A stretch of DNA of 1,247 nucleotides, taken from the NCBI RefSeq assembly GCF_003334335.1, contig NZ_QOWQ01000116.1. One strand, written 5' to 3'. This document shows, piece after piece, positions 40 through 896 of this stretch. The position numbers and the translations under genes are program-made. The notes beneath the pieces are model-generated. The model did no database searches and was not told the DNA's origin. It saw only the letters and a program-made list of their open reading frames with translations. The stretch's first letter is position 1. Every line of letters begins with the position of its first letter. The DNA is from Escherichia coli. Its GTDB lineage: Bacteria; Pseudomonadota; Gammaproteobacteria; Enterobacterales; Enterobacteriaceae.

Positions 40-896
40 GTTCTTGTTTTCAAATTGTTCCGGACTGAGGCCGCCACACCAACTGTGCCGCCGCCACCGA
101 TTGTAATCACATTCGATATAATTAAACACCGTTGCCCGCATTATTTCCCGGCTGATAAAGTGTTCTCCATGGATACATTCCACTTTCAGCGAATGAAAGA
201 AGCTTTCCACGCAGGCATTATCGTAGCAGCAACCTTTTGCGCTCATACTTCCACGCAGATTATGCCGCTTCAGTTGCGCCTGATAATCTGCTGAACAGTA
301 CTGGCCTCCACGGTCCGTGTGAACGATAACGTTCCGGGCCTCTTACGCCGCCACAGCGCCATCTGCAGGGCATCGCAGGCCAGTTGCGCCGTCATGCGTG
401 GCGACATTGACCAGCCAATAACGGCACGTGACCACAGGTCAATGACCACTGCCAGATACAGCCAGCCTTCATCTGTACGTAAGTACGTGATGTCTCCTGC
501 CCACTTCTGGTTCGGGCCACTGGCGTAAAAATCCTGCTCCAACAGATTTTCTGACACAGGCAGGCCGTGTGCGCGGTAGCTGACCGGGCTGAACTTCCGG
601 GAGGCCTTTGCCCTCAGTCCCTGACGGCGCAGGCTTGCCGCCACGGTTTTTACGTTAAAGGGGTAACCCTGAGCACGCAGTTCATCCGTCAGGCGTGGGG
701 CACCGTAACGCTGTTTTGACCGGGTAAAAGCCGCGAGGACAACGCTGTCGCAGTGTTGGCGGAACTGCTGACGCGTGCTTATCCTTGTCCGCCGCTGACA
801 CCACGTATACCAGCCGCTGCGGGCCACCCGGAGCACGCGGCACATTGCTTTGATGCTGAACTCAGCCTGATGTTTTTCAATAAAGACATACTTCAT
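31..896 (-). pseudogene. insF: IS3 OrfB (InsF-like DDE transposase catalytic domain), disrupted by a 1-bp frameshift at about 334-338
   Basis: The N-terminal part is ORF 270..896 (homology runs through ...ALWRRKRP, then 21 out-of-frame residues and a stop). The C-terminal part continues in another frame from 342 down to the TAG at 31-33 ([38 protein letters not shown]...ENKNLA; the ORF track shows only the Met-initiated part, 31..246). The frame change lies between Pro (336-338) and Arg (334-336). With one extra base the reading frame would be 867 nt, giving the canonical 288 aa. DDE residues: D at 492-494 (WAGDITY), D at 313-315 (HTDRGG), E at 205-207 (CVESFF). Confidence 0.85.

Follow-up and report, generated by a model that had tools for sequence, protein, structure and literature searches.

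Single-base frameshift in the orfB frame of an IS3 transposase gene from Escherichia coli

The 1,247-nt stretch of Escherichia coli DNA analyzed here in full (the window) carries an insertion sequence whose second transposase frame, orfB, is broken in two, and the question raised by this locus is whether the break is a genuine mutation or a homopolymer error. These were the two alternatives offered by the initial annotation of the window, real pseudogene or sequencing artifact, and they proved to be the right pair to weigh; the indirect evidence leans toward a real pseudogene. The feature itself is an ordinary single-base frameshift in one IS3 copy, already known and flagged in the public record.

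RESULTS AND DISCUSSION

Identity and layout of the element

The window is occupied from end to end by IS3. This element is present in 4,686 of 5,426 complete E. coli genomes (megablast), and most full-length megablast matches to the 1247-nt window query measure 1248 nt, one base more than the window. Aligned with an intact IS3 from strain 120899, which is annotated "programmed frameshift," the label PGAP gives to intact IS3 copies, the window matches at 1246/1247 positions with a single gap. Over this 1247-nt alignment the sole difference from canonical IS3 is one C absent from AGGCCCCGG, which turns AGG-CCCC-GG into AGG-CCC-GG; the C4 run concerned is IS3 nt 920-923, and the plus strand of the window at 334-338 reads ccggg. 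The initial annotation had called the element IS3 and had given the canonical form one more C or G at 336-338, and the alignment with the intact copy supports both statements. The window carries the following features:

1 to 1247, minus strand: IS3 element, 99.9% identical to IS3 in thousands of E. coli genomes
1 to 39, minus strand: right terminal inverted repeat (IRR), ending ...GGATCA, identical to canonical IS3
1209 to 1247, minus strand: left terminal inverted repeat (IRL), partly inside the window, its other 10 nt present in the matching genome
893 to 1192, minus strand: orfA, intact, 99 aa ending in AKRLK plus stop, identical to canonical
926 to 930, minus strand: A-AAA-G motif, the normal programmed -1 frameshift site fusing orfA to orfB, unchanged
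270 to 896, minus strand: truncated orfB frame, with native residues 1-187 followed by 21 aberrant ones up to the stop at 272-270
336 to 338, minus strand CCC (plus strand ggg): 1-nt deletion site, CCCC in canonical IS3
31 to 336, minus strand: out-of-frame orfB remnant, R188-A288 plus the normal stop at 33-31
492 to 494, minus strand: D135 codon, first catalytic Asp of the DDE triad, kept in frame
313 to 315, minus strand: D195 codon, second catalytic Asp, out of frame
205 to 207, minus strand: E231 codon, catalytic Glu, out of frame

The arrangement is that of the IS3 family, with orfA (1192-893) overlapped by an orfB that runs from 896 in the -1 frame and with AAAAG at 930-926. A-AAA-G is reportedly the frameshift motif of IS3 (work of Sekine and Ohtsubo), and the ~39-bp extent given here for the IRR follows ISfinder. 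The window starts at the exact right end of the element, and its left inverted repeat is missing the first 10 nt, TGATCTTACC. In the matching genome described below, the full element measures 1257 bp (canonical IS3, 1258 bp) and has terminal repeats of the form 5'-TG...CA-3', reading TGATCTTACC...GGTAGGATCA. The missing 10 nt are present there, beyond window positions 1238-1247, so the element is complete in that genome and the shortfall reflects how the window was cut.

The deletion divides the catalytic domain

The orfB open reading frame at 896-270 encodes 208 aa; its native part ends in WRRKRP, and the frame changes after Pro187. The second orfB frame, read from 339, ends in ENKNLA before the stop at 33-31. 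Both frames match the NCBIfam model NF033516 (IS3 transposase, 369 positions), the first over positions 90-273 (E 1e-58) and the second over positions 276-369 (E 2e-37), and the repaired 288-aa OrfB gives one continuous match over positions 90-369. Because the match is divided in this way between two frames, the homology changes frame exactly at the deletion, far beyond what chance would produce. The Pfam rve domain is broken at model position 65/102, and the DDE domain is discontinuous: none of the three catalytic codons is missing, but those of D195 and E231 lie in a different frame from that of D135. The ORFs, the NF033516 matches and the alignment thus confirm, to the base, the earlier proposal that orfB changes frame between the first and second catalytic Asp, and they place the retained first Asp (492-494) and the Asp and Glu lost from frame (313-315 and 205-207) exactly where the initial annotation had put them.

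The comparison with the IS3 reference (ISfinder IS3; insE/insF of K-12; OrfAB WP_085947771.1) can be put briefly. Reference and window copy share orfA, the A-AAA-G motif, orfB, the inverted repeats and the 3-bp target duplication, but the window has one C fewer, and its orfB is cut after residue 187, without D195 and E231. By its sequence, the window DNA is a member of the IS3 family (IS3 group), and the enzyme that it encodes is predicted not to be a functional member.

Consequences for the transposase

Any OrfAB protein made from the window copy would be 307 aa long (286 native plus 21 aberrant residues), compared with 387 aa normally. It would keep the helix-turn-helix (HTH), the leucine zipper and the part bearing the first Asp and be without D195 and E231. 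Judged from the coding sequence, self-catalyzed transposition should be impossible for this copy; with both ends intact, it could be mobilized by the transposase of another IS3 copy. IS3-family transposases reportedly favor action in cis, a preference associated with the work of Duval-Valentin and Chandler, so mobilization in trans would be inefficient.

OrfA and the truncated OrfAB of the window copy may also bind IS3 ends. The analogy here is with IS911, in which OrfAB[1-149], without the DDE domain, binds and pairs the IS ends and does so better than the full-length protein (PMC2909936). Both proteins keep the HTH, leucine-zipper and multimerization part and have an incomplete DDE domain. 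The IS911 protein, however, is an engineered truncation of another family member, whereas the window protein is natural, keeps the first Asp and about half of rve, and bears 21 nonsense residues in addition.

The matching copy interrupts ompN

Among the 5,426 complete E. coli genomes, the sole 100% full-length match to the window lies in strain 14EC047 (NZ_CP024155.1, 2343300-2344546). It is an IS3 that interrupts ompN, and RefSeq/PGAP already labels its transposase as a "frameshifted" pseudogene. A TAC direct repeat, the 3-bp target duplication, flanks this ompN::IS3 on both sides, and the empty ompN site, when reconstructed, is contiguous at 100% identity in the intact ompN of thousands of genomes; together, the duplication and the contiguous empty site point to a simple IS3 insertion. 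We regard the window as a chromosomal IS3 copy, most probably the ompN::IS3 of 14EC047. This assignment is probable and not certain, since a JGI metagenome contig (L020) carries at another locus an IS3 that is identical to the window, deletion included.

The ompN::IS3 insertion is common to 7 complete genomes, and the run is CCCC in the 6 other than 14EC047, which makes the deletion later than the insertion. Four of these six copies are intact, all four from other laboratories. The remaining two belong to 14EC007 and 14EC017, sister isolates from the same study as 14EC047, and have a deleted T at nt 426 together with C442T. The ompN flanks of 14EC047 and 14EC007 are separated by 409 SNPs in 41.6 kb. 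This makes the insertion old, with time enough for decay, which may plausibly have happened independently on each branch. The history that we propose is that the copy entered ompN by normal transposition, leaving the 3-bp TAC duplication, and that it would later have lost one C from the C4 run of orfB, most likely by replication slippage. On this view, an old IS copy passed on vertically has decayed by ordinary mutation.

We also note that 14EC047 and 14EC007 are reported as ST301 and have the same ompN::IS3, with flanks ~1% apart. In the comparison of L021 with L022, which cover the ompN region +/-20 kb, the 1.26-kb IS (L021 20201-21457) differs between the two strains by only 1 SNP and 2 indels. 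Such a low divergence of the IS next to its flanks suggests that IS copies evolve in concert or that the flanks have recombined.

Frequency of the deletion allele

A 63-nt query centered on the deletion found 12,782 places in 4,285 records, and the deletion allele was present in 2 of these records, namely, 14EC047 and the enterotoxigenic (ETEC) strain E1441 (LR883012), where it sits at an unrelated locus near yfgI. At the protein level, the exact 208-aa truncated product occurs on ~10 to 15 contigs and the intact protein on at least 1,000. The 10 contexts shown for the truncated product are all different and include several IS3 sequence backgrounds, which indicates that the allele arose, or was miscalled, repeatedly.

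Control 1-nt deletions, searched for with synthetic queries, were found in 1 record for the C4 run at nt 558 and in 8 records for the T5 run at nt 727. With 2 records against 1 and 8, the deletion is no more frequent than at these control homopolymers; the site is therefore not a hotspot, and we rejected a mutational hotspot at the C4 run. The idea that the window derives from a phage or another virus was likewise rejected, as a 40-nt exact pattern across the deletion had no match in viral_contigs.

Genuine mutation or consensus error

We consider it probable that the missing C is a genuine slippage mutation, and we favor this reading over a PacBio consensus error because the flanks of the 14EC047 assembly contain no private indels. 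A residual long-read homopolymer error, in which case the strain has CCCC and the copy is an intact, ordinary IS3, is nevertheless a possibility to be taken seriously, if a doubtful one. Loss of 1 nt from a homopolymer is the typical error left in PacBio RS II sequence. The 14EC047 chromosome was sequenced with Illumina HiSeq and PacBio RS II/HGAP3 (PMC6206212), and its construction with the latter speaks for such an error, as does the fact that at ompN the allele is private to 14EC047.

Comparison with other IS3 copies, including those of the same genome, had been proposed in the initial annotation as a way to examine the deletion, and it returned the longer run in each case: all six orthologous ompN copies have CCCC, and so does a second IS3 copy of 14EC047 (two of the four IS3 copies on its chromosome were compared), yet that second copy has a different frameshift. 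The only other complete RefSeq carrier of the allele, E1441, has it at a different locus, several carriers are NCTC and other megabase-contig, long-read assemblies, and in three other carriers the IS copy with the allele contains further 1-nt indels, all of which would fit a consensus error. So would the provenance of the ompN::IS3 copies, in that all three frameshifted ones come from one laboratory's pipeline and the four from elsewhere are intact. In the three carriers with additional indels (L013, L015, and L019, with IS3 at ~2640-3896), these are an indel in an A6 run, another close to the right end and an additional A; neighboring genes in these assemblies are split too, a pattern typical of poorly polished long-read assemblies.

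Several features of the 14EC047 data argue against an error. There are no private indels in 40 kb of unique 14EC047 flank, and a search for frameshifted housekeeping genes in 92 kb of its annotation found none. Two flank homopolymers are shorter in 14EC047 than in 14EC007, but both shorter runs are natural alleles that recur widely, in 845 and 2,196 records. An error-riddled 14EC047 assembly was accordingly rejected, there being no frameshifted genes in the 92 kb and no private homopolymer alleles in the flanks. The pipeline itself also appears sound: 14EC007 and 14EC017, processed in the same way, have 0 indel differences in 41.6 kb, and it reproduced a real IS3 frameshift, the deleted T described above, that is also present in 7 unrelated genomes. 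Since 10-kb reads span the 1.26-kb IS, consensus quality within the element should equal that of unique DNA. Finally, the JGI metagenome contig, whose IS3 is identical to the window with the deletion included, also weighs against an error.

If the deletion is real, the window holds an IS3 that is non-autonomous yet continues to disrupt ompN, that could be used as a recombination substrate or be mobilized in trans, and that should be left out of counts of active transposase genes. As an artifact, the deletion would simply add to the homopolymer errors of long-read assemblies. Either way, the event is routine and of bookkeeping interest.

Selected truncation and recoding

Two further readings of the shorter run concern its function. 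The truncation could have been selected, with the 307-aa OrfAB' inhibiting IS3 activity in the host in a trans-dominant manner, but we think this very unlikely. The end binding of IS911 OrfAB[1-149], which surpasses that of the full-length protein (PMC2909936), is in its favor, as is the recurrence of the allele in several IS3 sequence backgrounds. The frequency of the allele, no higher than that of the control deletions (2 records versus 1 and 8), counts against it, and every occurrence stands alone at a locus of its own, without clonal spread. By analogy with IS911, a stable OrfAB' might bind IS3 ends and brake other copies, such that recurrent loss of the C would be a cheap and repeatedly selected means of taming IS3; we would give this scenario only a slim chance.

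That a second recoding event (a ribosomal -1 slip or transcriptional slippage) restores a full-length transposase from the CCC copy is scarcely credible: a programmed -1 frameshift farther upstream is already part of IS3 expression, and nothing beyond it speaks for recoding, whereas G-CCC-GGA does not have the X-XXY-YYZ form of a slippery heptamer, transcriptional slippage would need a much longer run than three C, the RNA fold around the deletion is unremarkable (z = -0.57), and an allele in 2/4,285 records is not conserved. Slippery heptamers of the form X-XXY-YYZ follow from established recoding rules, and a programmed site combines a slippery sequence with a stimulatory structure, conserved among copies, a combination that the deletion site does not show. 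A search for an Rfam match at the deletion site found none, and a second recoding site was rejected for want of a slippery heptamer, an Rfam family or an unusual RNA fold.

A second defective IS3 allele

The deleted T of the 14EC007 and 14EC017 copies belongs to another dead IS3 allele. Delta-T426 with C442T, sometimes joined by C523T, was found in 10 complete E. coli records at no fewer than 3 loci (at least 3), including ompN of 14EC007 and 14EC017, an IS256 fragment at 3.98 Mb in 14EC047, and a site beside ykgJ/ecp in strain 162.2. Delta-T426 and C442T lie at nt 626 and 642 of L005 and L006, which correspond to plus-strand positions 832 and 816 of the window. Like the window allele, this one is a 1-nt deletion in orfB, labeled "frameshifted" by PGAP, in an element that is otherwise intact. 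It differs in lying upstream of D135, outside any homopolymer, and in being linked to an SNP, whereas the window allele is a singleton at each locus. The linked SNP C442T argues for common descent of the delta-T426 copies, and common descent in turn implies that a transposase-defective IS3 has spread by trans-mobilization, gene conversion or recombination between copies.

Both delta-T copies examined outside ompN, at L023 and L024 (2606-3862 in each), are without a 3-bp target duplication. Their junctions (2591-2605 and 3863-3877) read AGC/GAG and AAT/GTC, and one adjoins a truncated DUF1440 gene, which suggests that these junctions derive from IS-IS recombination or an adjacent deletion and not from simple insertion.

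The 14EC017 ompN copy (L006) agrees with the 3.98-Mb copy of 14EC047 (L023) at delta-T426, C442T and C523T, and the 14EC047 ompN copy has none of the three. This sharing between the 14EC017 ompN copy and the 14EC047 3.98-Mb copy looks like IS3 gene conversion within ST301, or else cross-talk between copies during assembly. In the surrounding sequence, pgrR (L022/L025 40548-41446) is annotated as frameshifted in both 14EC007 and 14EC017, which have a T7 run where 14EC047 has T8.
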